Source of the DNA: an uncultured Candidatus Saccharibacteria bacterium | GTDB taxonomy: Bacteria; Patescibacteriota; UBA1384; DTJR01 | Assembly: GCA_964580065.1 (NCBI GenBank) | Contig: CAZOJE010000001.1 | Span: forward strand, 23,717-87,716 | DNA: 64,000 bases | Direction: 5' to 3' | Part shown: positions 9,725-27,315 of the stretch, one piece after another | Numbering within the stretch: the first letter of the stretch is position 1 | Layout: every line of letters starts with the position of its first letter | Notes under the pieces: generated by a model | Database searches by the model: none | Seen by the model: only the letters and a program-made list of their open reading frames with translations | Told to the model about the DNA's origin: nothing | Position numbers and translations under genes: made by a program

Positions 9725-9801
9725 GCCCCTGTAGCTCAACTGGATAGAGCGCCTGGCTTCGGACCAGGAGGTTGTGGGTTCGAGTCCTGCCAGGGGTACC
9801 A
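9725..9801 (+). tRNA. tRNA-Arg (anticodon TCG)
   Basis: GCCCCTG-TA-GCTC-AACTGGATA-GAGC-G-CCTGG-CTTCGGA-CCAGG...TTCGAGT...CAGGGGT-A-CCA. Confidence 0.85.
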
Positions 9802-10524: not shown

Positions 10525-11928
10525 TTAATTGATTACCGACAGTTCCTTATTTCTCAAGCTCATTTTGATCTTAAGGCAGCTCAGGAGTTCTCGTTTTTCC
10601 TCTCTTGCTCCCTCGCGAAGCACAAACTTTGAGTAGTCTCTAAGATCTACTTTGTTATCTAAATCCTTGCTGATTTTTTGTTTTAGGATTTTCGACATAA
10701 ATCTCTCGTATCTATTTATCTCCGACTGTAAATGCTTTTGAGTATTAAGCGTATCGACATTGATATCATCAATAATTTTACAAATTTGTTCTGTAATCTC
10801 TTCTTCTCTTACATACGGCTGTTTACAATTTCGGTCTTTGCCACCAGTGCAGTGATAGTAGACATATCTTCTGATTACGCCATTATCTTGCCTTTTGAAC
10901 TTTTCTTCAGCTGTAACACCTGATCCGCAAACTCCGCAGAAAATGAGCTTGGTAAAGTCAAACTCTTTAGTTCCTGGCTTGGCTCTTGGAGCTACCACTA
11001 ATCTTTCCTGAACTTTATCAAATAGCTCTTTTGTAATGATTGATTCATGTCCGGCTTGATACCAAATTCCAGCACCTCTCGGGTATTCAAATGAACCGTA
11101 GTAGTAATGATTATTCAAAATTGCATAAATTGAACTTAATACCACTGGTTTTCCTTGCCTGGTTCTAAAATTGATTGAATTAAGCCAGTTTAATATTGTC
11201 CGGCCACTTTCACCATTTAAGGATCGCTCAAAAATCTCATGAATTACTGGTGCACGTTCAGGATCTAAGAATATTTTTTTGTATCCCTTTTTACCGCCAA
11301 TTTCATTCACATATCCTAGCGGTGGAGCACAGGGTCTGAATCCCATTTCACATTTGGCCTTAAGGCCTCGTTTTACATTAATAACCTTGTTGTCATTTTC
11401 GAGCTTCGCTTGGCTTCCTAAAATCATCAATAAGAACTTGTCATTCGGTGAATTAGTGAATATTTGATTGTAAGTTCTTATCTCAACAAGATAATTTTGG
11501 TCCATCAGATCTACCAAGGTTCCCAAATCACCAGCGTTTCTGCTTAATCTATCTGGTGCCCAGGTCAGAATACCTTGAATCTTGTCAGCCCGAATATCTT
11601 TGATTATAGACATGAATACTGGCCGTTCGGCCGAGTTTTTAGCTGAATGACTTTCTTTTCTGATATCAGCAACCTCCAAGCCATCCCGATCGGCGACCGC
11701 TAACATCTCTTTGAGCTGAGAATCGATGGAAAGAGCCTGTAATTCGTCTCTTTCGGTTGATTTACGAGCATAAAGGCAGAACTTGATCTTCTTATTTCCT
11801 GGCAGTATTGCTTCCATGGTAGGAGGGAAGGTACCGCAAGGGCTGGGCATGTCAAGCTCATTAAATGACTTTACAACAGGAGTAAATCTGCTAACATTAA
11901 GGTTGTTAATTGTACATTTTGAATACAT
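10525..11928 (-). CDS. large serine recombinase (resolvase/invertase N-terminal catalytic domain + recombinase domain + zinc ribbon)
   Basis: FCLYARKSTERDELQALSIDSQ matches the catalytic Y-x-R-x-S-T ... S-x-x-x-Q motif. LTWAPDRLSRN. The C-terminus has C..C...C..C (CGVCGSG...YYHCTGG..C). Confidence 0.85.
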   Translation of the reverse strand: MYSKCTINNLNVSRFTPVVKSFNELDMPSPCGTFPPTMEAILPGNKKIKFCLYARKSTERDELQALSIDSQLKEMLAVADRDGLEVADIRKESHSAKNSAERPVFMSIIKDIRADKIQGILTWAPDRLSRNAGDLGTLVDLMDQNYLVEIRTYNQIFTNSPNDKFLLMILGSQAKLENDNKVINVKRGLKAKCEMGFRPCAPPLGYVNEIGGKKGYKKIFLDPERAPVIHEIFERSLNGESGRTILNWLNSINFRTRQGKPVVLSSIYAILNNHYYYGSFEYPRGAGIWYQAGHESIITKELFDKVQERLVVAPRAKPGTKEFDFTKLIFCGVCGSGVTAEEKFKRQDNGVIRRYVYYHCTGGKDRNCKQPYVREEEITEQICKIIDDINVDTLNTQKHLQSEINRYERFMSKILKQKISKDLDNKVDLRDYSKFVLREGAREEKRELLSCLKIKMSLRNKELSVIN

Positions 11929-12100
11929 TGCCTAAACCTTAGAAATTTTCTAAGGCATGGCATAAAATCCTTCGCAGATAATGAGCTCGTCGTCAGAGCA
12001 TCTGCGAAGGTTGTGATCCGAAAGGATTGCAGGTAGCCGTAAAAAGCTATCGCTGGCGGCGGGCTTTTTGTATCCGCTTCCGGTTAATCGAGGCAAGAAA

Positions 12101-13240
12101 ATGAAAATATTACATTTAAATCCGGATAAGAAATGGGTTCCGGTTGAAAAGCGATACTATAACGATGAAGCTCAACTTCAAGATCTCTTAACAAACGATG
12201 TTAACACTCTTCCGCTTGATGAAATAGGGTATGATTCCAAATTCGTCACAATAGGAAAGGAAGTAATCCTTCAAAATGGTGCGCTGGATGTTTTGGCGGT
12301 CAGTCCTCAAGGCCACATTGCTTTGATTGAAACAAAGCTCGAGAAAAACCCCGAAGTAAAGAGGACAGTCGTCGGTCAAATCCTCGGTTATGCCGCCTAT
12401 CTTTGGAATAAATCTTATGAAGAGATTGAAGGTAATTGTTTTAGAAAATTCCTACTCCAGCGTAAGGTCAATTTTCAAGGTTCGTTGTGTGAATATATGA
12501 AAGAGAAGATAGGAGAGGAGAATTTCTCAGAATCTGAATTCAAAGAAGGCCTGGAAAAGCGGCTTCGTCTCGGCAGTTTTACTCTTCTGATTGTTGTCGA
12601 TCAGGCCAATCAAGAGCTTAAAGATATCGCTAACTACCTGAATGATCGAACTGGGCAAGAAATCGACTTCTATGTGGTAGAGATGCAATTGGTTGGTGAT
12701 GAACAAGAGCATTTTTTGATACCCAGTCTAGCCAACCCTCCACGAAAAAATATTACCTACTCTGAGAAATCCAAGTCTAACGACAGCTATGATCGAACAC
12801 CGATTGCCAAAGAGGACTTTATAAAATTATTATCACAAAATGGCAAGAGAATTGCCGAAGCACTCCTTGGAAAATTTGAGGCAAGGGATGATGTAGATAT
12901 TGTTTGGCGCAAGAATGGATTCTCGCTGATGGCTAAGTATCCGAAGGATTTTGCCGTACCTGGTTATTCCACAAAATTTTCATTCTTATTTTTTAAGGCT
13001 CCTTCAAATGAACAAGACAGCGAGGAGCTTCAGTTTGGTTATTGCGAATGGCCCTATGAAAACATTCCCAAGCTCAAACCATTTATTGATGAATATGTTA
13101 GTTTCTATCGAACTATGCCTGGATACGACGCAAAACGTAAAACAACTAATGCGTTCAATGAATTTACCGTAGAACAGCAGAATAAATTTATTGGTCTCAT
13201 AGAGGAATCAGCTCGAGAATTAAAATCAAAAGTTTTATAA
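12101..13240 (+). CDS. PD-(D/E)xK nuclease-like hypothetical protein (NucS/DUF91-type motif in the N-terminal domain)
   Basis: ALDVLAVSPQGHIALIETKLEKNPEVKRTVVGQILGYAAYL fits the D...E.K core plus the Q-x-x-x-Y of NucS/DUF91-type restriction-endonuclease-fold proteins. The remaining 280 aa are unassigned. Confidence 0.5.
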   Translation: MKILHLNPDKKWVPVEKRYYNDEAQLQDLLTNDVNTLPLDEIGYDSKFVTIGKEVILQNGALDVLAVSPQGHIALIETKLEKNPEVKRTVVGQILGYAAYLWNKSYEEIEGNCFRKFLLQRKVNFQGSLCEYMKEKIGEENFSESEFKEGLEKRLRLGSFTLLIVVDQANQELKDIANYLNDRTGQEIDFYVVEMQLVGDEQEHFLIPSLANPPRKNITYSEKSKSNDSYDRTPIAKEDFIKLLSQNGKRIAEALLGKFEARDDVDIVWRKNGFSLMAKYPKDFAVPGYSTKFSFLFFKAPSNEQDSEELQFGYCEWPYENIPKLKPFIDEYVSFYRTMPGYDAKRKTTNAFNEFTVEQQNKFIGLIEESARELKSKVL

Positions 13241-13264: not shown

Positions 13265-13846
13265 ATGGCAAAGCAAACGTTTTCGAAAAAACAGCTTCTA
13301 ATAGCTGTAGGGGCAGCGGTAGTAATCTTTCTGATCGGATTTTATTCAGGAGATGCTTATCGCGTAAATAGAATTAAGAGTGCATTTAACAGCATCGGCT
13401 CGTTAGGCGAATCTCCCGATCTCAATAAAGACAAGAAACTGGTAGAAAAAAAGCTCGGGGAAGAAATCGATATTGTTAAGATGAAACTAACTGTTAATAA
13501 ATCCGAGGAAAAGAATTCCATATCAAGCAAATATGGTGATGCGAAGTCGGCTAAAGATAATGCAAAATTTGTCGTAGTAGATTTATCTGTTACAAACTCA
13601 ACTGATAGTGAATTTAACTTTTCTCCGAATAACACACTTCAACTGGTTGATAATCAGAATAGAAAGTATAAAACATACGACGACTCAATTGGCACAGTCG
13701 ACAACTATCTAGATGTGCGTGAACTATCACCAAGCATTGCCGAATCGGGCGTTCTCGTTTATGAGATTCCAAACGATGCCAGTAATTACTCACTTTGGAT
13801 CGATAAAGATGGATCTAGCGACAGATTCCAAGTCGGCCTAAAGTAA
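13265..13846 (+). CDS. membrane-anchored DUF4352-like protein
   Basis: N-terminal TM helix. KFVVVDLSVTNSTDSEFNFSPNNTLQLVDNQNRKY...GVLVYEIP pattern. Confidence 0.6.
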   Translation: MAKQTFSKKQLLIAVGAAVVIFLIGFYSGDAYRVNRIKSAFNSIGSLGESPDLNKDKKLVEKKLGEEIDIVKMKLTVNKSEEKNSISSKYGDAKSAKDNAKFVVVDLSVTNSTDSEFNFSPNNTLQLVDNQNRKYKTYDDSIGTVDNYLDVRELSPSIAESGVLVYEIPNDASNYSLWIDKDGSSDRFQVGLK

Positions 13847-18048: not shown

Positions 18049-18834
18049 ATGTGGTTCTGGATATTTGTAATCGGCGGCATAATTTTATATGCAATTGCTA
18101 ACTCTGGTAAGGAAAAGAGTAAACCAAATATTAGATATTCTTATAAAGTCAGTGAACCTAACTACAACACTGAATACTCATTTAAACCAGCGAAGCCGAG
18201 TGCGCTTCCAGAGAATGATCCCGTTATTGACGCACTGCGAGGATATATAGAGGCGGGCTGGGAAATAAAAATAAGATACTGCAATTCAAGCGGAACTACT
18301 ACTAGCAGAAGGATAAAACCTTTAGAAATTCTGGTATGGAACGGCCAGTATTATTTGAAGGCAGTCTGCCTATTAAGAGAGGAAGAAAGAACGTTTAAAA
18401 TTAAGAGAATACTCGCAATAAACGATGAGAGTATTGAAAAGAAAAGAGAGACAAAGGCTCAATTTATAAGAAGTAGGGTATTGCTTGTTGAAAAAAACGA
18501 GGAAATATTAGCTAGTTGTAAATCTTTTTTGAGAAAAAATAGAATTTCAACTTCAACCGCTCAAGATGGAATTTCAGCTTTAGACAAGGCCGAGAAAGGC
18601 AACTTCGATTTGATTTTCCTCAGTCAAAATATCCCATACGTTAGTGGAATTGAGGTACTCCGCAATATCAAAAAAAGAGGTTTGACTGGAGCGAAAGTAG
18701 TTATGGTAACAACTAAACCAGATGCAAAAATAAAGGAAGAGGCCGAGCGACTTGGTGTAAGCGACTACTTTGTGTTTTCGGATGATTCTAAGGAGGAGCT
18801 TACTTCTGCCCTGGAATATTTCTTATCACAATAA
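18049..18834 (+). CDS. membrane-anchored WYL-domain + response-regulator receiver (REC) fusion protein
   Basis: N-terminal TM helix WFWIFVIGGIILYAIA. WYL domain IKIRYCNSSGTTTSRRIKPLEILVWNGQYYLKAVCLLREEERTFKIKRI. REC domain with VLLVE, FDLIFLS (phospho-acceptor Asp), VVMVTT and KP. Confidence 0.75.
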   Translation: MWFWIFVIGGIILYAIANSGKEKSKPNIRYSYKVSEPNYNTEYSFKPAKPSALPENDPVIDALRGYIEAGWEIKIRYCNSSGTTTSRRIKPLEILVWNGQYYLKAVCLLREEERTFKIKRILAINDESIEKKRETKAQFIRSRVLLVEKNEEILASCKSFLRKNRISTSTAQDGISALDKAEKGNFDLIFLSQNIPYVSGIEVLRNIKKRGLTGAKVVMVTTKPDAKIKEEAERLGVSDYFVFSDDSKEELTSALEYFLSQ

Positions 18835-18840
18835 ATAATT

Positions 18841-20094
18841 ATGAATAAAATAATCCTACAAATATCTGAGCTCAATAAATTAATATCCGACCATATTAAT
18901 CATCTCGAGGAATTTGAGGTTGAAGCAGAAATTTCCGACTGGAGGCTGTTCGGTGGAAAGCTTTTCTATTTTAAGCTCAAAGACAAAAAATCATCCGTTT
19001 CCGCAATGACAAACATTTTTGAGTTAACAAACTGGAGAGATTTTGAGGATGGCATGTTGGTCCGCGCAAAAATTTCAATAAAGTTCAATCAGCTCAAAGG
19101 CACTCTCTATGCATGGGTCGAGGAAATGAACCCACACGGCGAAGGTGCTTTAAAGATAGCTTTCGAGAAGCTTAGAAAACGTCTCGAAACAGAGGGATTG
19201 TTTTCCCAAGAAAGAAAGAGGCATATTGTTCGTTACCCACAACGCTTAGGACTCATTACCTCCAAGGATGGTGCTGCAATCAAGGATTTCGAAAAGATAT
19301 TAAATTCGAGGATGGGAGGCCTGACTATTTATTTTCATCCCGTCAAAGTTGAAGGGAAAGATGCTGTTCCCAGCATTATTGAAGCTTTTTCTTATTTTAA
19401 CAATTTTAAAGAATCGCTTGATGCTATAGTTTTAATTCGAGGAGGCGGTAGTCTTGAAAATCTTCAGGTATTTAATGATGAGAGGATAGCCCGATGTGTT
19501 GCGGGTTCTCGTTACCCAGTCATTTGTGGGGTTGGCCACGAGCATGATGTAAGTTTGTGTGATTTGTGTGCTGACGTTAGAGCTTCGACACCGTCCAATG
19601 CAGCTGAATTGCTTGTCGAGAACAAGGTCCATACACAGAAGATTATAGACACATCGTTAGATAAAATCAGGGGCATCATCAAATTCAAAATTGGTGGAAC
19701 CTCCCAGCAAATAGAGAGCCATTTATTGTTAATCAGCCACTCCATCAAGAACGAACTTCAAAGTAAAAAACTTATCGTTATCGAAATTAATTCTTCGCTT
19801 TTTCGTTATAAATCACAATTTAGTAATTTTGAGCAACAAATTTCTCAATCAGTTGTATCGATATCAAGAGTATTTGTTCACAGATTAGATATTTCTAAAC
19901 AATACCTCGCTCAAACAGCTGTTTTTCTTAAATCGGTAAGTCCTAAAAATATAATGGCAATGGGATATTCTGTTGTCAAAGACGAAAAACAAAAAATCGT
20001 ACGAGACTCCGAACAGTTAGAAATAGAATCTAACTTATGCGCCTACTTTTTAAAGGGGTCTATTAAAGCTAAAGTAATTAAGAAAGGGGTATAA
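18841..20094 (+). CDS. xseA: exodeoxyribonuclease VII large subunit
   Basis: LGLITSKDGAAIKD...LIRGGGSLENLQVFNDERIARCVAGSRYPVICGVGHEHDVSLCDLCADVRASTPSNAAE matches conserved XseA blocks. Confidence 0.9.
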   Translation: MNKIILQISELNKLISDHINHLEEFEVEAEISDWRLFGGKLFYFKLKDKKSSVSAMTNIFELTNWRDFEDGMLVRAKISIKFNQLKGTLYAWVEEMNPHGEGALKIAFEKLRKRLETEGLFSQERKRHIVRYPQRLGLITSKDGAAIKDFEKILNSRMGGLTIYFHPVKVEGKDAVPSIIEAFSYFNNFKESLDAIVLIRGGGSLENLQVFNDERIARCVAGSRYPVICGVGHEHDVSLCDLCADVRASTPSNAAELLVENKVHTQKIIDTSLDKIRGIIKFKIGGTSQQIESHLLLISHSIKNELQSKKLIVIEINSSLFRYKSQFSNFEQQISQSVVSISRVFVHRLDISKQYLAQTAVFLKSVSPKNIMAMGYSVVKDEKQKIVRDSEQLEIESNLCAYFLKGSIKAKVIKKGV

Positions 20095-20095
20095 A

Positions 20096-20296
20096 ATGCC
20101 AGAAGAAAAGACTTTTGCAGAAAAAATGAAAGAATTAGATACTATAAAGGAAAAATTTGAATCGGGAAATTTCGATTTAGAGAAAGATTTGCCGTTATAT
20201 AAGAGAGCTGTTCAGCTTGCTACCGATTTAAAAGAGCATCTGAATAAGCTCGAGAATGAGATTATAGAGATCGAAGCAAAAAAGGAAAATGAATAA
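20096..20296 (+). CDS. xseB: exodeoxyribonuclease VII small subunit
   Basis: 66-aa coiled-coil protein FAEKMKELDTIKEKFESGNFDLEKDLPLYKRAVQL, immediately after xseA. Confidence 0.85.
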   Translation: MPEEKTFAEKMKELDTIKEKFESGNFDLEKDLPLYKRAVQLATDLKEHLNKLENEIIEIEAKKENE

Positions 20297-21830
20297 AAAA
20301 GATAAAAAGATAACAGCTTCCATTCTTTATGACTATGTTCAGTGCCCACACAAAGTATGGCGGGATGTTTATGGTCCACAAAATGAGAAAATCATCGAGC
20401 CAAATCCTTTTGTAGAGTTGCTATGGCGGAAGGGTATACAACACGAAAAAAGGGTTGTGTTGACCTTTGGCGAATATCTTGATTTAAGTAAGGGAACCCT
20501 GGATGAGCGAATCTCAAAAACCATCGAAGCTCTCAGGGATGAAGTGCCATTGATTTATCAAGGGGTATTAAAACATGAAAATTTACTTGGAATACCCGAC
20601 CTCTTGAAACGCCAGTCTGACGGATCATACATTCCTATCGACATTAAGTCTGGTTCAGCCTTTGAAGGTGGAAGTGATGATGGCGCTGGGGATGAGGGTA
20701 AACCAAGATTACATTATGCAATTCAGCTCTGCTTGTATAATGAACTGTTAAAGAAACTTGGATTTGCAGAGCATGATAAAGGTCAAGTGATCGATATACA
20801 TCACGACCAGGTTGAATATGATCTATCGGCGCCCAAAGGATTAAGAGATAAGACGACTTGGTGGAAAAATTACGAAAAGATAAAAACTGATGTTAGGTTA
20901 CTTATGCTGGACCAGACAAAAAATAAGCCGTCTTATTCGAGTAAATGCAAGTTGTGCCCCTGGTATCAAAGTTGCAAGAGGTGGTGCAAAGAAAATAATG
21001 ATCTGACGAATATTTTTGACATGGGAAGAGCTAGTAGGGATAGAATAAACGAAGACCTCTATATCGAAAATTTAAATGATTTAATGTCGATTGATATTGC
21101 TTCGATAATGCAACAAAAAGAACAAGAAAAAAAGGCAGGAAATAAAACTTTTCTATTTAACATTTCCGACAACACCCTGAAGAAGGCTGTTGAAAGAGCG
21201 AGAATCTCTTTAATAACTAAGATTCCTGTATTATACGAACCGATTGATTTTCCCGATGTGAGTTATGAACTTTTTTTTGACATTGAAGATGATCCGACTC
21301 AGGAATTTGTATATTTACACGGTGTCTATGAGAGAAGAAACGGCGCAGAGCGTTTTCTAGATTTTACGGCTAAAGAAATTAGTCCTGAGGCCGAAAAAGA
21401 GGCATGGGCCAACTTTTGGAAGTATATTGACTCGCTACCACAAGATGATTTTACGGTTTACTATTACACGCATCATGAAAAGACAACATATACCAAAATG
21501 CAAAAGCTCTATCCGGATGTGATATCAGCGGAAAAGATTGAGAATTTTTTTTCAAATCCTAACGTGATCGATTTGTACAAAGTTGTACGATCAAAGACAA
21601 ACTGGCCTGTACCAAGTTATTCACTCAAAGAGATTGCGGTTTACCTCGGCTTTGAATGGCGCGATGAAACACCTTCTGGCGCACTCTCCATCCAGTGGTT
21701 TAATGAGTATATAGAGAAGAAAGATCCTAAGATGTTGGAGAGAATACTGCTCTATAACGAAGATGACTGTAAAGCAACGTTAGTTATTAAGGATGCAATT
21801 AGTAAGTTAAATAATGAGTTGGCTAAGTAA
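20289..21830 (+). CDS. RecB-family nuclease, TM0106 type (Cas4-like PD-(D/E)xK N-domain with Cys cluster + C-terminal RNase H-like exonuclease-fold domain)
   Basis: YDYVQCPHKVW...IPDLL...IDIKSG matches the Cas4/RecB nuclease core. Cys cluster CKLCPWYQSC..C. C-terminal YNEDDCKAT. Confidence 0.7.
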   Translation: MNKKDKKITASILYDYVQCPHKVWRDVYGPQNEKIIEPNPFVELLWRKGIQHEKRVVLTFGEYLDLSKGTLDERISKTIEALRDEVPLIYQGVLKHENLLGIPDLLKRQSDGSYIPIDIKSGSAFEGGSDDGAGDEGKPRLHYAIQLCLYNELLKKLGFAEHDKGQVIDIHHDQVEYDLSAPKGLRDKTTWWKNYEKIKTDVRLLMLDQTKNKPSYSSKCKLCPWYQSCKRWCKENNDLTNIFDMGRASRDRINEDLYIENLNDLMSIDIASIMQQKEQEKKAGNKTFLFNISDNTLKKAVERARISLITKIPVLYEPIDFPDVSYELFFDIEDDPTQEFVYLHGVYERRNGAERFLDFTAKEISPEAEKEAWANFWKYIDSLPQDDFTVYYYTHHEKTTYTKMQKLYPDVISAEKIENFFSNPNVIDLYKVVRSKTNWPVPSYSLKEIAVYLGFEWRDETPSGALSIQWFNEYIEKKDPKMLERILLYNEDDCKATLVIKDAISKLNNELAK

Positions 21831-22785
21831 TTTATTTTCGAGCGAACCTGCTAAAACAAATCAAAACGCTGTTTGCGTTACTAAAAGCGAAATAATTGCT
21901 GGCTCGAGATTTTCTATACCCGAGCCAACTAGGTCGTTGGTTTTTGTAACTGATGATTCTCCCGATAAAGCCCAAGCTCTAGGGCCATCAATAAGGATTA
22001 CTTTCAATCTGGGTAGTCTTGAAACCGAACGGGAGGTTGAAGAAGGAAATATTTTTTCCGAACCTAGCCTAATATGGACAAGACTTCCAATAAAACCAAA
22101 TAGTGATTTAGAAGATAAGCCAATGTATTATCCATGCTATGTCCATCTAAATCCTCTGCAGAGATATCAGTATCTTAGTTGGCTTCAGGACGTTACCAAG
22201 AAGACAAATTTGAGCTATGTCTTTTTATATTATTATGGTCTCGAAAGGCACCTATTGATCGGTGACTATGATAAAGCAGTTGATGAAATACTTAGATTAA
22301 TTAAATATCATGATCATGATAAATTTCGCTACTATGTAATTACACCACTTATCGTTGCCAGCCTGTACAGAAAGAGGGTGGATGTATTCAAAAAGGCTGA
22401 CTTTTTGTCTCGCGAGGTTTCCAATGAAGCACTGATCATGCGAGCCCTACAGAATATTCACTTAAATGCTGATGACTTGATCAAATTATCTTCATCGGTC
22501 GGGTTTAGAAATAAGAGGTATATTCATCAGAAGCCAGAATTATTTAAAGAAATTCTGATTGAAAAAATGCAAGAAGATGAAGCAAAAAGCGTCCCCATTC
22601 TCAATAGGTTCGAAATAAGTCAGCTCCAAAAGGAAAAAATATCTGCTTTTTGCAATCTATCGATCCCGGAGAGATTCAAAAAGCTTGAGACTCCCCAGCT
22701 CTTAAGGAATAAGCGCTTTGAAAAATTAATTTTCAACTTAATAACCGAAACTCACGCAGAAGTGAAGATCAGAAAAGAAGTATAA
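21814..22785 (+). CDS. TerB-N domain-containing protein (hypothetical; conflict-system associated)
   Basis: YYPCYVHLNPLQRYQYLSWLQD...SYVFLYYYGLERHLL matches, as I remember it, the TerB_N signature (Y.FLYlYGLERR). Confidence 0.5.
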   Translation: MSWLSNLFSSEPAKTNQNAVCVTKSEIIAGSRFSIPEPTRSLVFVTDDSPDKAQALGPSIRITFNLGSLETEREVEEGNIFSEPSLIWTRLPIKPNSDLEDKPMYYPCYVHLNPLQRYQYLSWLQDVTKKTNLSYVFLYYYGLERHLLIGDYDKAVDEILRLIKYHDHDKFRYYVITPLIVASLYRKRVDVFKKADFLSREVSNEALIMRALQNIHLNADDLIKLSSSVGFRNKRYIHQKPELFKEILIEKMQEDEAKSVPILNRFEISQLQKEKISAFCNLSIPERFKKLETPQLLRNKRFEKLIFNLITETHAEVKIRKEV

Positions 22786-22814: not shown

Positions 22815-24413
22815 TCAAGATCTCCTATATGGCAGCCCATCTGACCCGAACTCAATCGAAGAGCTTTTGCCCGGTCCCCAAGGATGGCGATTTAATCTCT
22901 TGAACATCTCTCGATCGTCTTTGTCTCCCCAATCCTCGCCTCGTCTTTTTCCTAAAGTTCCACTAATTAGGCCATTGGTCTCAACAAACAGGACGCCACA
23001 ATTACTTGGCATTTTCTCAATTAGTCCAAGAATTAAGATGCTAAATGCATCTGCCATGTCATCATGTCTTGTTCTACCGAAATCCACGAGTTGCTTGATC
23101 AGTTCTTCGCAGCCATTTCGGGGAAAATACACTTTGCTCTGGTAAACCTTATTGGCAGCAAGTTCGAGGCGTTCTCTTTTATCTTTGCCTCTAATTTTGA
23201 CTCCAACTGCATCGATGTTGCGCTCCCTTAACTGTTGAGTCACATAGCCCTGAAGCATCGTATCTTCAACATAAAACTTATTGCTGAATCTGCCATCGTG
23301 TACTTTGCAGATATCCTCGGCACGCTCCAGAATTTCAGTAAATTTCAGGCGTGCATTGACGGGGTTTGGCAAGATATAAACTTCAAAGTTATCGCCCGAT
23401 CCAACAACTTTTGCCGAAACAAGCGAGGTAAAATCAGCTGTCGCTTTTTCGCTAATTGCCAAGTCAATTCCGGTGGCGAAACTATAGGATTGATTTCGTA
23501 AGTTTTCTGGCAGTTTATCGTAGTATTGAATCTTGTCTTCGGTAATGACACGCTCTCTGTCATCAATAATGTGAAGCAGATATTCTTTATTCCATGTTTT
23601 TTCGTCTCCAACTCGGAGTCGTTCATCTTCGACTGCCTTCAAATCCTCGTACTTTCCAGGCCAGGCAATATTGTCATACTCATCAAGAAGCGGATATTTT
23701 CTGAATATTCCCGAGAGCTTCTCGTGGACAATAAGATTTTCAAGACGCTTCAGTAAGCTGTCTTCGTGAAGCAGATTACCGACTATTATGATTTTAGTTC
23801 CCTTATCACCGAGAGGGAACACTTCGCTCGTTAACCAGTTGAAAGTACTCTCTCTGGCTTCCTGTGTTTTCACCGAATCTGTGTTCTCAACATCGTCAGC
23901 TACTATCAGGTCCGGGCGATATCGGCCGTGTCTGATGCCGCGAAAACTTTGATCCTTGGATACGGCAATGATTTTGGCGTTGTACCGGGGAATAACTAAA
24001 CTACAATTATTCCACTCATCGGTTTCTTGAAAGGGACCAAGATCACGCTTCAATAAGTCGTTTGTTTCAAGCTCGCGTTTTAAGTTTTTGAAGTGAAGTT
24101 TGGCCTGTTCGGCAGTCTGCGAGATTAATACCACAAACTTCTTTTGTGGACGTCCAACAACGGCCCAGATTGGATAGCTTAGAGTCATAAGCGTTGATTT
24201 GGCTGATCCGCGAAAACTACATATAGCGGCGAGACTTATATCATCTCGCTCAGTAATCGCAAACATTTCTTTGTGAAATTCTGCAATTTTGTACTGAACG
24301 AATGAACTTAAGTAGGTGTGAAAGAACCATACATGGCTTTTCTTGGTTAGATCTGCCCTTGTTGCTTGGTTTTTGATGATTTTACTTATTTGGTTTTTCT
24401 TTTTTCTTTTCAT
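22815..24413 (-). CDS. phage terminase large subunit
   Basis: Walker A-like SFRGSAKSTL. Walker B LIVADDVEN. C-terminal RNase H-like nuclease ATGIDLA...RHDDMADAF. Confidence 0.85.
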   Translation of the reverse strand: MKRKKKNQISKIIKNQATRADLTKKSHVWFFHTYLSSFVQYKIAEFHKEMFAITERDDISLAAICSFRGSAKSTLMTLSYPIWAVVGRPQKKFVVLISQTAEQAKLHFKNLKRELETNDLLKRDLGPFQETDEWNNCSLVIPRYNAKIIAVSKDQSFRGIRHGRYRPDLIVADDVENTDSVKTQEARESTFNWLTSEVFPLGDKGTKIIIVGNLLHEDSLLKRLENLIVHEKLSGIFRKYPLLDEYDNIAWPGKYEDLKAVEDERLRVGDEKTWNKEYLLHIIDDRERVITEDKIQYYDKLPENLRNQSYSFATGIDLAISEKATADFTSLVSAKVVGSGDNFEVYILPNPVNARLKFTEILERAEDICKVHDGRFSNKFYVEDTMLQGYVTQQLRERNIDAVGVKIRGKDKRERLELAANKVYQSKVYFPRNGCEELIKQLVDFGRTRHDDMADAFSILILGLIEKMPSNCGVLFVETNGLISGTLGKRRGEDWGDKDDREMFKRLNRHPWGPGKSSSIEFGSDGLPYRRS

Positions 24414-24882
24414 TTTCCTCTCCTTTGGAAGTAATGAGCGTGGCCAGTTCTAGTGCTTTCATAATGCTCTCTTCCTGCTCCTTAGTTAACTCATCTTTTT
24501 TGATTTCTAGACCACCCGATACCTCAAGTTTATTCTTGTAGGCGTTGTGGCGGTGATTGAGCCAATACATCACAGCGGTCAGATTATTATCTTTCATCGC
24601 TGTAATGAGCTTGCTTTCTGCCAAATCATTTATGAATTGGCAACCCTCCTCAATTGCTTTATCACTTGAAGCAGCAAATTTTTTGCTTGCTTTTCGCCAG
24701 CGATAATATGTATTTCGACTGATACCAACTTTTTGGCAAGCGACTTCGATAATTGGGGTTTTGCTGAATTGCTCAACTAGGGTTTTTTGATTTTGCGCAG
24801 TTCTGATCTGAATCTTCGAATCTACATCACTCATTTTGCCTTCTTGATCAGCTCTGACTTTTGCCCGGTGAATTTTTCCCAA
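24382..24882 (-). CDS. putative terminase small subunit (HTH protein)
   Basis: Overlaps the terminase large-subunit start. HTH CQKVGISRNTYYRWRK. Position and size are typical. Confidence 0.5.
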   Translation of the reverse strand: MGKIHRAKVRADQEGKMSDVDSKIQIRTAQNQKTLVEQFSKTPIIEVACQKVGISRNTYYRWRKASKKFAASSDKAIEEGCQFINDLAESKLITAMKDNNLTAVMYWLNHRHNAYKNKLEVSGGLEIKKDELTKEQEESIMKALELATLITSKGEENEKKKEKPNK

Positions 24883-26159
24883 CGATTTCTAATCACCTCG
24901 GCATAGATCGGACACTTTTCCATTACATAACAGCGACGCTTGAGTGTTTCCGCAGCAATCAAGGTGCTTCCAGATCCGCCGAAGGGTTCGATAATAAGGT
25001 CATCTCTTTTGGTGAGAACCTTGATGTACGGAATGAGGATTTCAACAGGTTTTGTGCCGAAAATAATCGCTTGCCCCGTACTTTTCTCATCGCCAGCTTT
25101 CGATTCAATCACATCGGTGGGACAATACTGCTTGCCTTTTTCATATCCTTCCCACTGAGCATCGCCCGATGTGGCAAACAGTGCCGTCTGATACTCATTT
25201 TGCAGCAGCTCTTCTTCGGGTTCAAGATTCAACTGTTTACCGGGCGTTGTACCAACTACTGCGATGTCATATTTAGAGAAGAATTTGTGCTTAGCGGAAT
25301 ATCCTTGATTTCTATTTGGAATTTTCCAAATAATCATATTGCGGATAGTCCAAAATTTTTCCATCGCTCCCCATAGCTCACGGACATTTTTCCAGTTCTC
25401 AAAGGCAATGATATTGAAGTTTTCATTTTGGACCTTGGCAACGTTGGCCGTCCAGAGTTCAATGAAATCAGGCGGAAGCTCGTCAGTACCAATATATTTT
25501 CTGTTTTTCTTGGCTCCGAACCCGTCTGTCGGTTTGCCGTGACGCTTTCCCTGGAGGTAATTGAGAACATATGGCTCATCAGTGAAACACATGTCGGCTT
25601 TCTCGCCATTCATTAGCTTGATAATGTCATCTTCTACCATGCTGTTTCCGCACATCAACCTGTTTTTGCCGAGGATGTATGTATCTCCCGGTTCAATTTC
25701 TATCTTTGAAATCTTGAGCTTTTCAAGTTCACGATTTACGTCGAATTGTTCTGGCTCTGTTTCGATATCAAAGATATCGTCAAGTTCTTCCGAATCAAAT
25801 CCGACATCAGCTAGAAATCTTTCGTCAAATTCGGCGAGAAGTTTGAAGTCAAATTCTCCCGTGTTGCGATTTAATCGCAAGTTGAGCTCTTTTTCTTTTT
25901 CGATGTCTGCGATATCGACATAGACAACAGGAACTTTTTCAATTCCAATTTCTTTGGCTGCGACAACTCTCATGTGCGCACCAATTATTATATTCTTGCG
26001 ATTTGGATTTGAGTTGACGATCGCTGGATCAACGAATCCAAATTTCTTGATACTTTCCTTCAGGTCAGAAAGTTGTTTATCATTCCATTTTCTTGGATTG
26101 TAATCGCTAGCGATCAAATCCTTAGTTGATACATATTCTATTTTGTGTGTGTTGTTCAT
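24831..26159 (-). CDS. ParB-like nuclease domain fused to an N6/N4 DNA methyltransferase (beta class)
   Basis: ParB N-terminus LIASDYNPRK...L..SI...GFVDPAIV. Methyltransferase motif IV-like FTDEPYV and motif I EPFGGSGSTLIAA, in beta-class order. Confidence 0.85.
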   Translation of the reverse strand: MNNTHKIEYVSTKDLIASDYNPRKWNDKQLSDLKESIKKFGFVDPAIVNSNPNRKNIIIGAHMRVVAAKEIGIEKVPVVYVDIADIEKEKELNLRLNRNTGEFDFKLLAEFDERFLADVGFDSEELDDIFDIETEPEQFDVNRELEKLKISKIEIEPGDTYILGKNRLMCGNSMVEDDIIKLMNGEKADMCFTDEPYVLNYLQGKRHGKPTDGFGAKKNRKYIGTDELPPDFIELWTANVAKVQNENFNIIAFENWKNVRELWGAMEKFWTIRNMIIWKIPNRNQGYSAKHKFFSKYDIAVVGTTPGKQLNLEPEEELLQNEYQTALFATSGDAQWEGYEKGKQYCPTDVIESKAGDEKSTGQAIIFGTKPVEILIPYIKVLTKRDDLIIEPFGGSGSTLIAAETLKRRCYVMEKCPIYAEVIRNRWEKFTGQKSELIKKAK

Positions 26160-26185: not shown

Positions 26186-26216
26186 ACAAAAAACCCACAC
26201 TTGATGGTGTGGTTTT
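26186..26216. terminator. bidirectional Rho-independent terminator (AAAAAACCCACAC-TTGATG-GTGTGGTTTTGT)
   Basis: Stem CCACAC/GTGTGG flanked by an A-run and a T-run. Confidence 0.6.
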
Positions 26217-26366: not shown

Positions 26367-26537
26367 TTACCGTTTTTTGTCAAGTTTTTGTTTGCTAATA
26401 TTCTCAATGGCCTTAGTAAATATCATATCGAATGCTTGTTCGATGTTCCAGTCAGCCCTTGCTTTCTCTTCCGGACTTAAAGAGTCGTAAATATTTTCGT
26501 AAACGATTTCAAGTTTCTTCGGCTTTTTCTTTTTCAT
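26367..26537 (-). CDS. small basic hypothetical protein (56 aa, MKKKKPKKLEIVYENIYDSLSPEEKARADWNIEQAF...). It is not in the supplied ORF track.
   Basis: ATG..TAA ORF on the minus strand overlapping the upstream gene by about 29 nt. Protein-like composition. Confidence 0.25.
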   Translation of the reverse strand: MKKKKPKKLEIVYENIYDSLSPEEKARADWNIEQAFDMIFTKAIENISKQKLDKKR

Positions 26538-26769
26538 TTAAGTAGAATTTGATCGTTTTGCCTACAATCTCAATCTTGCCTTGATTCGTCAGTTCTTTGT
26601 AAGCATCCTGAAAAGTTATATTTTTTTCGACAATCATTTTGTTTAACATGTGATAAAGAGCGAGAGGAATTTCATATCCCTCAACTTTTAAAGCTTTATA
26701 CCACGAAGATGTAGTTTTATATTTGTCCATATCCATTTTTACATTATACACGTCTAGTATTTTATTCAA
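26509..26769 (-). CDS. hypothetical protein (prophage remnant)
   Basis: 86-aa ORF in the leftward gene string. Confidence 0.4.
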   Translation of the reverse strand: MNKILDVYNVKMDMDKYKTTSSWYKALKVEGYEIPLALYHMLNKMIVEKNITFQDAYKELTNQGKIEIVGKTIKFYLNEKEKAEET

Positions 26770-26796
26770 CCAAGGAGCTCAACGATATTGTTGTTC

Positions 26797-27315
26797 TTAG
26801 TTCGAGAAGGAAATACTAGAGAGAACCGTTTTAAGATCTCTGTCTATATTCCACCCTGAGAAATCATTGCTCAAAAAACTAATTTCATAGTATCCAGTAT
26901 TATCTGGAAGCTCATAAATGTAAGCATAGTAAAAAACTGCTGCGTCGCCATCGCCATACGCCAGAAATTTTTTATCACCAAAGATTGTGGTTATCAGATA
27001 CTCCTGTGGTAGTGGTCCGCCAGTTGTTTTAATATTTTCTTTATCAAAAGGTGAATCTTTGAATTCATAAGAAATACAATCATCAAGACCTTGCTTGTTT
27101 GGTTTAGAGCAAAGATATCTCGCCCCTTTAATTTCTTTGGAATCAACAAGGTGTTGTGGATATTTAAAGCTAATCAACTGATCAGAATAAGTTTTCCAAA
27201 AAAGTTGGGTATTTTGCGTCAATTCGAAATAAATAACATAAAGAAAAGCTATTGAGAGAATAATTATGCCGATAAATATAAACAGTGGTTGTTTTCTCAC
27301 ACTTCCATTATACAA
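26797..27315 (-). CDS. hypothetical membrane-anchored protein
   Basis: N-terminal TM helix LFIFIGIIILSIAFLYVIYF. Confidence 0.4.
   Translation of the reverse strand: MYNGSVRKQPLFIFIGIIILSIAFLYVIYFELTQNTQLFWKTYSDQLISFKYPQHLVDSKEIKGARYLCSKPNKQGLDDCISYEFKDSPFDKENIKTTGGPLPQEYLITTIFGDKKFLAYGDGDAAVFYYAYIYELPDNTGYYEISFLSNDFSGWNIDRDLKTVLSSISFSN

Follow-up and report, generated by a model that had tools for sequence, protein, structure and literature searches.

Recurrent pairing of a Cas4-like nuclease with a TerB_N protein, and a helicase–exonuclease VII operon of possible defence function in a Saccharibacteria bacterium

What function is served by a Cas4-like nuclease gene that overlaps a TerB_N gene and stands beside a phage-type terminase? 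The question is raised by a stretch of 64,000 nucleotides (nt), here called the window, from an uncultured Candidatus Saccharibacteria bacterium (contig CAZOJE010000001.1 of assembly GCA_964580065.1), a member of the Candidate Phyla Radiation (CPR). An earlier note, made from the sequence alone, had proposed that a TM0106-type RecB/Cas4-like nuclease was translationally coupled to a TerB-N domain protein, directly upstream of a convergent phage terminase, and that the pair formed a two-gene defence module at a prophage junction. The analysis described here places the pair at the end of a six-gene operon, and we judge it about an even chance that this operon is an accessory, horizontally mobile DNA-degradation module that acts in anti-phage or anti-plasmid defence, of a Shango- or Hachiman-like helicase-nuclease type.

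The identity of the nuclease was established directly by profile comparison. It is a full-length member of the TM0106 family, matching TIGR03491 at 243.8 bits against a cut-off of 97.45 (E = 3.7e-72), with residues 8-502 aligned to profile positions 1-460 of 462; Pfam matches were to PF13482 (RNase_H_2, 97.2 bits) and PF12705 (PDDEXK_1, 28 bits). The three motifs named in the earlier note, YDYVQCPHKVW, CKLCPWYQSC and YNEDDCKAT, were all present, and their key residues were invariant in 21 homologues. Invariant positions comprised the four Cas4-type Fe-S cysteines C19 and C220-x2-C223-x5-C229, the PD-(D/E)xK residues D104, I119 and K120 together with Q146 and Y150 (D118 was nearly so), and the exonuclease residues D331/E333, H396/E397, D428 and D492/D493. 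An AlphaFold2 model (pLDDT 86.7) matched the Cas4 structures 4r5q and 4ic1 at a Foldseek probability of 1.00, and also the nuclease domains of Dna2, Exo5 and AdnAB. Further matches of the model to a family-B polymerase (6wyb) and to RNase H structures are consistent with a predicted C-terminal RNase H-fold (DEDD/PolB-exo-like) domain. A PDB sequence search with TM0106 gave no match. A CRISPR-associated Cas4 was considered and rejected, as TIGR00372 scored 40.9 bits, below its cut-off of 65; the Rfam scan of the window found no CRISPR repeat families, and no cas genes were present among the neighbours.

A second nuclease family proved relevant to what follows. The DUF2779 profile (PF11074) weakly detected TM0106 proteins, indicating that the two families are distant homologues of the same architecture. 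Both have been described as 'solo Cas4 + DEDD' nucleases sharing one two-domain architecture (PMC13621843), which is also that of the window protein. In the searchable literature no assigned biological role was found for TM0106 or DUF2779, nor any link of these nucleases to TerB_N, a superfamily 1 (SF1) helicase or exonuclease VII (ExoVII).

The overlapping gene encodes a TerB_N protein, as had been proposed. PF13208 matched at 52.8 bits against a cut-off of 25 (E = 5.8e-14), although the match covers only part of the profile (positions 23-152 of 207). Among 1.84 billion representatives searched with a family profile, 498 clusters were found at E ≤ 1e-30. The family is about 320 residues long; 24 aligned members were 41-57% identical, with 48 invariant residues, and the string NLSYVFLYxYGLER was invariant in 24 of 24. 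The named members belong to Patescibacteria/CPR (Shapirobacteria, Roizmanbacteria, Dojkabacteria, Saccharibacteria, Paceibacterota and others), and longer members carry either extensions without a Pfam match, or ankyrin/HEAT or TPR repeats. In IMG/VR the CPR family was represented only by relatives of 27-29% identity plus one true Shango operon. Neither TerB (PF05099) nor the TerB_C domain was found in the window protein or in ten longer family members tested, and the window neighbourhood contained no ter genes. Although it has the TerB_N domain, the protein is thus not a TerB or tellurite-resistance protein, as judged by domains and neighbours. Its AlphaFold2 model (pLDDT 83.8, pTM 0.79) gave no Foldseek match at E ≤ 0.001 in PDB or BFVD, and a PDB sequence search with the TerB_N profile was also negative. 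The nucleic-acid-sensing role that the earlier note mentions for TerB-N proteins thereby gained no support and stays a conjecture.

Inspection of the sequence showed the two reading frames to overlap by 17 nt, the ATG of TerB_N lying inside the TM0106 frame. The overlapping start is conserved, homologue N-termini reading MxWL..LF, and the proposal of translational coupling was borne out. A further overlap, of 8 nt, was seen between the stop of xseB and the start of TM0106, so that the nuclease and TerB_N genes form the tail of a longer operon (Table 1). The operon runs SF1 helicase-restriction endonuclease, WYL-receiver protein (WYL-REC), XseA, XseB, TM0106, TerB_N, with gaps of 9, 6 and 1 nt followed by the overlaps of 8 and 17 nt. 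Both Xse subunits scored above their Pfam cut-offs and are encoded side by side, which identifies them as ExoVII. The convergent terminase large subunit (TerL) gene follows TerB_N after 29 nt, directly downstream as proposed. Promoter and terminator scans returned the same counts as shuffled controls, and operon boundaries could therefore not be assigned from them.

The pairing was then considered across lineages. All open reading frames of 101 loci with TerB_N homologues were clustered without prior labels, and dereplication at 85% identity left 53 informative TerB_N lineages. A Cas4+exonuclease nuclease, either TM0106 or DUF2779, was present in the locus in 16 of the 53, and was the immediate neighbour of TerB_N in 11. 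If the nuclease were positioned at random within the locus, 3.2 of the 16 nuclease-bearing lineages would be expected to show adjacency, against the 11 found (P≈5e-6). Adjacency of nuclease and TerB_N is thus non-random and recurrent. TM0106 was the neighbour in five lineages (window, L004, L026, L042, L049; L numbers denote loci) and DUF2779, of about 490 residues, in six (L015, L041, L051, L053, L056, L057). Gene order was variable, both orders occurring, and the two nuclease families were intermixed on a neighbour-joining tree of TerB_N, L004 being sister to L041, for example. The nuclease slot was otherwise occupied by DUF2130 (L060, L067) or by XseA-XseB directly before TerB_N (L009), and the helicase slot by SF1-MTES proteins (about nine loci), SNF2 or HKD-SNF2 (L001/L103, L057) or UvrD (L044). 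No association of TM0106 or DUF2779 with TerB_N was found in the searchable literature, which did not cover the 2012 TerB-N paper of Anantharaman, Iyer and Aravind, a possible source of related neighbourhood observations.

These counts bear on the view that the two genes are neighbours by coincidence, TM0106 and TerB_N being independent single-gene functions that landed together in a variable island. Each gene does occur without the other, and the neighbourhoods are highly variable; but chance placement fits poorly with overlapping frames in both the window and L198 (17 and 1 nt), with the excess of adjacent lineages, with two distinct nuclease families in one slot, and with a Shango operon adjacent to DUF2779 in another phylum. 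We consider such a coincidence very unlikely. Away from TerB_N, TM0106 adjoined rpsF-ssb-dnaB or Gabija-like OLD+UvrD genes, and it also occurred in a phage region. In the Gabija-like locus, at L196 5559-13578 on a 946-kb contig, the TM0106 homologue is flanked by a DNA_pol_B_exo2 protein on one side and, on the other, by a Gabija-like OLD-TOPRIM ATPase with a UvrD helicase, followed by DUF2130; GmrSD lies nearby, and the locus resembles a defence island that stands apart from the setting of the CPR module.

The remaining genes of the operon also recur with the pair. Helicase homologues were found just 5' of the nuclease or TerB_N gene in ten loci (L009, L015, L049, L051, L053, L060, L067, L068, L193, L198), and xseA lay within the module in four of them (L009, L049, L193, L198). 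In L198 the order is SF1 helicase, Zn-ribbon protein, TM0106, TerB_N, XseA, XseB; its TerB_N protein is 673 residues long, 48% identical, and overlaps TM0106 by the single nucleotide noted above. L049 has the same part list. L193, whose TM0106 homologue is labelled Berkelbacteria, encodes helicase, TM0106, a 194-residue protein, XseA and XseB, with no TerB_N; the 194-residue protein was considered as a degraded TerB_N and rejected (hhalign probability 0.7%). L009 has helicase, ExoVII and TerB_N without a Cas4-type nuclease. Of the two-gene defence module that had been proposed, the recurrent coupled pair in defence-like surroundings therefore stands, while the restriction to two genes does not: the parts recur together in L198 and L049, either member can be missing (L193, L009) and TerB_N also occurs alone, so that the unit comprises at least helicase, ExoVII, TM0106 and TerB_N.

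Table 1. Features of the window around the nuclease and TerB_N genes (bit scores are profile matches)
Feature	Position	Strand	Evidence or remark
Large serine recombinase	10525..11928	-	Resolvase + Recombinase + Zn_ribbon_recom; closing gene of cassette
LOOT RNA (RF03000)	11929..12051	+	93.6 bits vs gathering score 46.4; between recombinase start and first cargo gene
PDC-S11-like candidate defence protein	12068..13240	+	PADLOC PDC-S11, 62 bits; opens plus-strand cargo block
DUF4352 protein	13265..13846	+	PF11611, 57 bits
SF1 (Upf1/Dna2-type) helicase + MTES_1575/DUF559 restriction-endonuclease-fold domain, 1371 aa	13924..18039	+	AAA_11/AAA_12 + MTES_1575
WYL + receiver-domain protein, putative regulator	18049..18834	+	WYL 48 bits, Response_reg 61 bits
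XseA, exonuclease VII large subunit	18841..20094	+	Exonuc_VII_L, 229 bits
XseB, exonuclease VII small subunit	20096..20296	+	Exonuc_VII_S, 39.4 bits
TM0106-family dual nuclease, 513 aa	20289..21830	+	TIGR03491; Cas4-like PD-(D/E)xK N-terminal, RNase H-fold C-terminal
TerB_N protein, 323 aa	21814..22785	+	PF13208
Terminase large subunit (TerL)	22815..24413	-	phrog_38, 261 bits
Terminase small subunit-like helix-turn-helix protein (TerS)	24382..24882	-	HTH_Tnp_1_2; several terminase-small-subunit PHROGs
ParB_N + N6_N4 DNA methyltransferase	24831..26159	-	phrog_498, 268 bits; opening gene of cassette

The helicase partially matched the anti-phage proteins ProA (235 bits) and Hhe (135 bits), both single-protein helicase-nuclease defence genes; in PADLOC it matched the candidate PDC-S37 (230 bits), Hhe and MkoA/C of Mokosh. 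With PDC-S37, Hhe and ProA the helicase-endonuclease half aligns, but the matches cover only the C-terminal two thirds and fall far under the NCBIfam cut-offs of 1500-2000 bits. The WYL-REC protein also matched the PADLOC model of CRISPR-associated WYL proteins. Its N-terminus includes a hydrophobic segment, MWFWIFVIGGIILYAIANSG, and a DNA-binding domain could not be recognised, which makes the protein atypical among WYL regulators.

The distribution of the module is sparse. Only some 17 CPR loci emerged when 185,579 species genomes were scanned by pattern, a rough lower bound as the scan rests on two invariant peptide motifs; the pair is sporadic and not a set of universal single-copy genes. 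Between bins assigned to Berkelbacteria, Gracilibacteria, Nitrospirota, Pseudomonadota and Alphaproteobacteria, TM0106 homologues shared 59-77% identity. This suggests horizontal spread, although the labels of metagenome-assembled genomes (MAGs) can be wrong. Together with the island context described below, these data favour a module that is accessory rather than core.

That context is a four-gene cassette of ParB_N-methyltransferase, TerS-like helix-turn-helix protein, TerL and large serine recombinase. A TerL homologue alignment retrieved 80 IMG/VR loci, where a single-sequence TerL scan had retrieved none, and the cassette was recognised in about 45 loci: about 35 from IMG/VR, eight TerB_N loci and the window (window, L113-L148, L001, L006, L008, L014, L046, L047, L058). 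The TerL Walker A/B and nuclease acidic residues were invariant in seven homologues, and the ParB-methyltransferase was 59-68% identical in many cassette loci. The recombinase usually lies some 100-150 nt after TerL, directly following it in most of the IMG/VR loci and in L001, L006, L014, L046 and L058, with 1-8 kb inserted in some loci. In the window, the ParB-methyltransferase, TerS and TerL genes occupy the minus strand from 26159 to 22815, and the recombinase at 11928-10525 completes the cassette; the 10.9 kb between TerL and recombinase is plus-strand cargo ending with TM0106-TerB_N. The GC content of this cargo region is 0.33-0.38, against about 0.40-0.45 for most of the window. A bidirectional terminator-like hairpin at 26195-26212, just 5' of the ParB-methyltransferase start, may divide the cassette from small minus-strand reading frames at 26509-27315.

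The prophage junction of the earlier note could not be upheld. PHROG and Pfam searches of the reading frames flanking the window terminase revealed no portal, capsid or tail genes, and none were found in the about 45 cassette loci; a portal-cluster gene lay downstream only in distant TerL relatives of about 34-42% identity (L138, L143, L144). The terminase is a member of the cassette. Some cassettes carry two complete TerL genes in tandem (L117 1620-4813, L120 3809-6938, L123 3035-6318, L141 3668-6812). These spans of about 3 kb had been considered as inteins or a split gene, but each TerL aligns near full length to that of the window at 44-48% identity, indicating duplication.

Genes beside the cassette, or between TerL and recombinase, included Type I restriction-modification (R-M) systems (HsdM/R/S), Type ISP enzymes, reverse transcriptases, ResIII+TnsA-like and PIF1 helicases, HKD-SNF2 with an Eco57I-type methylase, DUF2779 and PDC-S11-like proteins. 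The last, of about 370-390 residues, stands immediately beside TerL on the opposite strand in L136 and L140. The window operon is cargo between the TerL and serine recombinase of a cassette that is flanked or interrupted by defence genes across the CPR. Among the related TerB_N and TM0106 loci, R-M systems, reverse transcriptase, AbiE, Gabija-like, PIN or STAND genes lie nearby. A defence-like setting is supported by these R-M, reverse transcriptase, AbiE and Gabija-like genes and by the PADLOC matches to SngA, PDC-S37, Hhe, Mokosh and PDC-S11.

We infer that the cassette is mobile, and it may be the backbone of a mobile island or satellite in CPR bacteria. In five loci (L124, L129, L135, L116, L015) the 3' end of the recombinase is followed by a tRNA gene at a distance of 105-152 nt; in three more, L118, L142 and the window (tRNA-Arg, 9725-9801), the distance is up to about 1 kb. 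The tRNA identities vary. This placement is consistent with an element boundary beyond the recombinase, and tRNAs were commoner there than tRNA density would suggest. Searches for att-like direct or inverted repeats around cargo and cassette returned only chance-level matches. No description of the four-gene cassette was found in the searchable literature. P4-like satellites, phage-inducible chromosomal islands and prophage defence hotspots share with it the plan of a compact integrase-bearing element that has packaging genes and a variable slot holding defence systems. The cassette differs from the P4-like and chromosomal-island satellites in its serine rather than tyrosine recombinase and in having its own TerL besides TerS, and no replication, regulatory or capsid-remodelling genes were recognised in it.

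Such an element could itself be the beneficiary of the operon, which would then either process DNA when the element is excised, replicated or packaged, or work against a helper phage, as phage satellites do. The position between TerL and recombinase would fit this. It would also fit that 7 of the 53 lineages have TerB_N no more than 10 kb from the cassette, with three orientations represented, that DUF2779 lies near the cassette in L113, L121, L133 and L147, and that the recombinase diverges from the helicase in L198 and, in L193, is encoded on the other strand some 2 kb upstream of the helicase. However, none of the about 35 IMG/VR cassette loci contained TerB_N, most TerB_N loci lack the cassette, and cargo at that position otherwise consists of typical defence genes. 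We therefore regard service to the element as improbable.

An RNA also recurs with the module. LOOT was found in six TerB_N/TM0106-module loci: window (see Table 1), L001 (9729-9870), L006 (5751-5869), L009 (15147-15274), L015 (11058-11175) and L193 (10639-10761). Depending on the locus, it is found beside the start of the recombinase gene, immediately downstream of TerB_N or xseB, or 5' of TerB_N; it was absent from 11 IMG/VR cassette loci tested. A role as leader of one conserved downstream gene was rejected, as the downstream genes differ between loci. A terminator-like hairpin (12050-12062) is present at the 3' end of the window LOOT. Nothing relevant to LOOT function was found in the searchable literature.

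How does the operon compare with known systems? Shango consists of the TerB-like protein SngA, the ATPase SngB and the helicase SngC (10.1101/2022.05.11.491447; PMC10250203). The window resembles it in encoding a TerB_N-type protein with a helicase in a defence island, and the PADLOC SngA model matched the TerB_N protein at 47.6 bits (residues 71-283 to profile positions 63-247 of 528). The window helicase differs in being of SF1 with a restriction endonuclease domain, and the dedicated nucleases TM0106 and ExoVII are not among the described parts of Shango (10.1101/2022.05.11.491447; PMC10250203). A further connection was found in an Omnitrophota MAG, where L018 (3527-11032) holds a canonical Shango operon scoring 285, 613 and 935 bits for SngA, SngB and SngC, with SngA at 284.6 bits over profile positions 24-524. 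A DUF2779 Cas4+exonuclease nuclease follows on the same strand after 120 nt, which suggests that some Shango systems may include this nuclease as an accessory that has gone unrecognised.

Hachiman, in which the HamA nuclease and the HamB helicase form a helicase-sensor/nuclease-effector complex (PMC12278908), offers a model for a helicase and a nuclease effector acting in one complex. No PADLOC match to HamA or HamB was found among ten window proteins scanned, the helicase type differs, and the window has TerB_N, ExoVII and WYL-REC as extra components. With RecBCD, AddAB and AdnAB the operon shares the combination of an SF1 helicase and a RecB-type Fe-S nuclease, AdnAB and Dna2 nuclease domains being among the Foldseek matches. 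The window helicase is, however, Upf1/Dna2-like (AAA_11/AAA_12) and not UvrD-like, and its partners are separate polypeptides of different families with an accessory distribution.

If the operon is a defence module, its products could act as follows. The helicase would load on foreign or damaged DNA and unwind the strands. TM0106 would degrade the single strands, its Cas4-type Fe-S nuclease working 5'-3' and its RNase H-fold exonuclease 3'-5', and ExoVII would degrade single strands as well. TerB_N, which translational coupling would keep in fixed ratio to the nuclease, may be a regulatory, sensing or localising subunit, as SngA may be in Shango; a membrane anchor is predicted in about one third of its homologues. 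WYL-REC would tune expression or activity. We infer that the proteins form a complex and that its action on such substrates would confer the defence phenotype.

Several observations weigh against this reading. XseAB is normally a housekeeping repair enzyme. TM0106 adjoins rpsF-ssb-dnaB in one Nitrospirota-labelled bin (L194), and TerB_N can stand by itself amid housekeeping genes, flanked by MurJ and LepA (L010/L087) or by DnaE and ThrRS (L037). In JCVI-syn3.0, a minimal cell that is free of phages, the analogous DUF2779 nuclease is quasi-essential (PMC13621843). As to Shango, SngA was matched only in its N-terminal half, and no SngB (BrxD-like ATPase) or SngC (BrxH-like superfamily 2 helicase) was found among the ten window proteins scanned, so that by SngA length and by SngB and SngC the window locus is not a Shango system; moreover, the mechanism of Shango itself is not established.

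The main rival is that the operon is a housekeeping DNA repair or end-resection operon in which helicase, TM0106 and ExoVII form a RecBCD/AddAB-like machine for a reduced genome, with TerB_N as an accessory and defence not the primary role. The embedding of xseA and xseB in the operon and their recurrence there favour it, as do the Foldseek matches of TM0106 to Dna2, Exo5 and AdnAB, the occurrence of TM0106 beside ssb-dnaB and, in L197, beside ImuB/UmuD-like genes, the quasi-essential DUF2779 protein, and TerB_N standing alone among core genes. A core repair function is less easily reconciled with the sparse distribution, with cross-phylum TM0106 identity that looks like horizontal transfer, with the low-GC cargo position between terminase and recombinase, with neighbours that are repeatedly R-M, Abi, PIN or STAND genes, or with the PADLOC matches to defence models. 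On balance we think a repair operon unlikely, while giving it more weight than the other rivals.

A last alternative starts from the fact that CPR bacteria lack nucleotide synthesis. The helicase and exonucleases, with a TerB_N protein that is sometimes tethered to the membrane, could break down DNA taken up from outside and so supply nucleotides for salvage. Exonucleases are abundant in the operon, and 37 of 115 close TerB_N homologues (P0006, P0009, P0015, P0021 and others) have an N-terminal extension of about 140 residues holding a strongly hydrophobic segment, which is probably membrane-spanning and would serve as the anchor; a few of the extended homologues have CxxC pairs. The window protein, however, lacks this extension, salvage would be expected to be widespread where the TerB_N family is sporadic, and the island and defence context does not suggest scavenging, which we consider the least probable of the readings.

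Defence by DNA degradation thus remains the reading that we favour. A bolder version would make the cassette the backbone of an undescribed CPR-wide integrative element, either a minimalist self-packaging satellite or a mobile defence island, that ferries defence cargo. Helicase, TM0106 or DUF2779, and TerB_N, with or without ExoVII and LOOT RNA, would then constitute a new multi-component defence system, TerB_N being the shared sensor or adaptor that links it to Shango. We put this forward tentatively, as a proposal more doubtful than likely.

The results of note are the coupling of nuclease and TerB_N across lineages, its extension to the helicase and ExoVII, the Shango link in L018, and an unexpected cassette with recurrent defence cargo. 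CPR bacteria rarely carry CRISPR, and their phage resistance is largely unexplained (PMC6509639). If the favoured reading is true, the operon would provide a concrete, recurrent gene set to test for CPR defence, would give the widespread orphan nuclease families TM0106 and DUF2779 their first genomic partner, and would offer a handle on the TerB_N/SngA component of Shango. The cassette, if mobile, would be a new vehicle of defence-gene exchange in this uncultured radiation and a practical marker for its defence islands.

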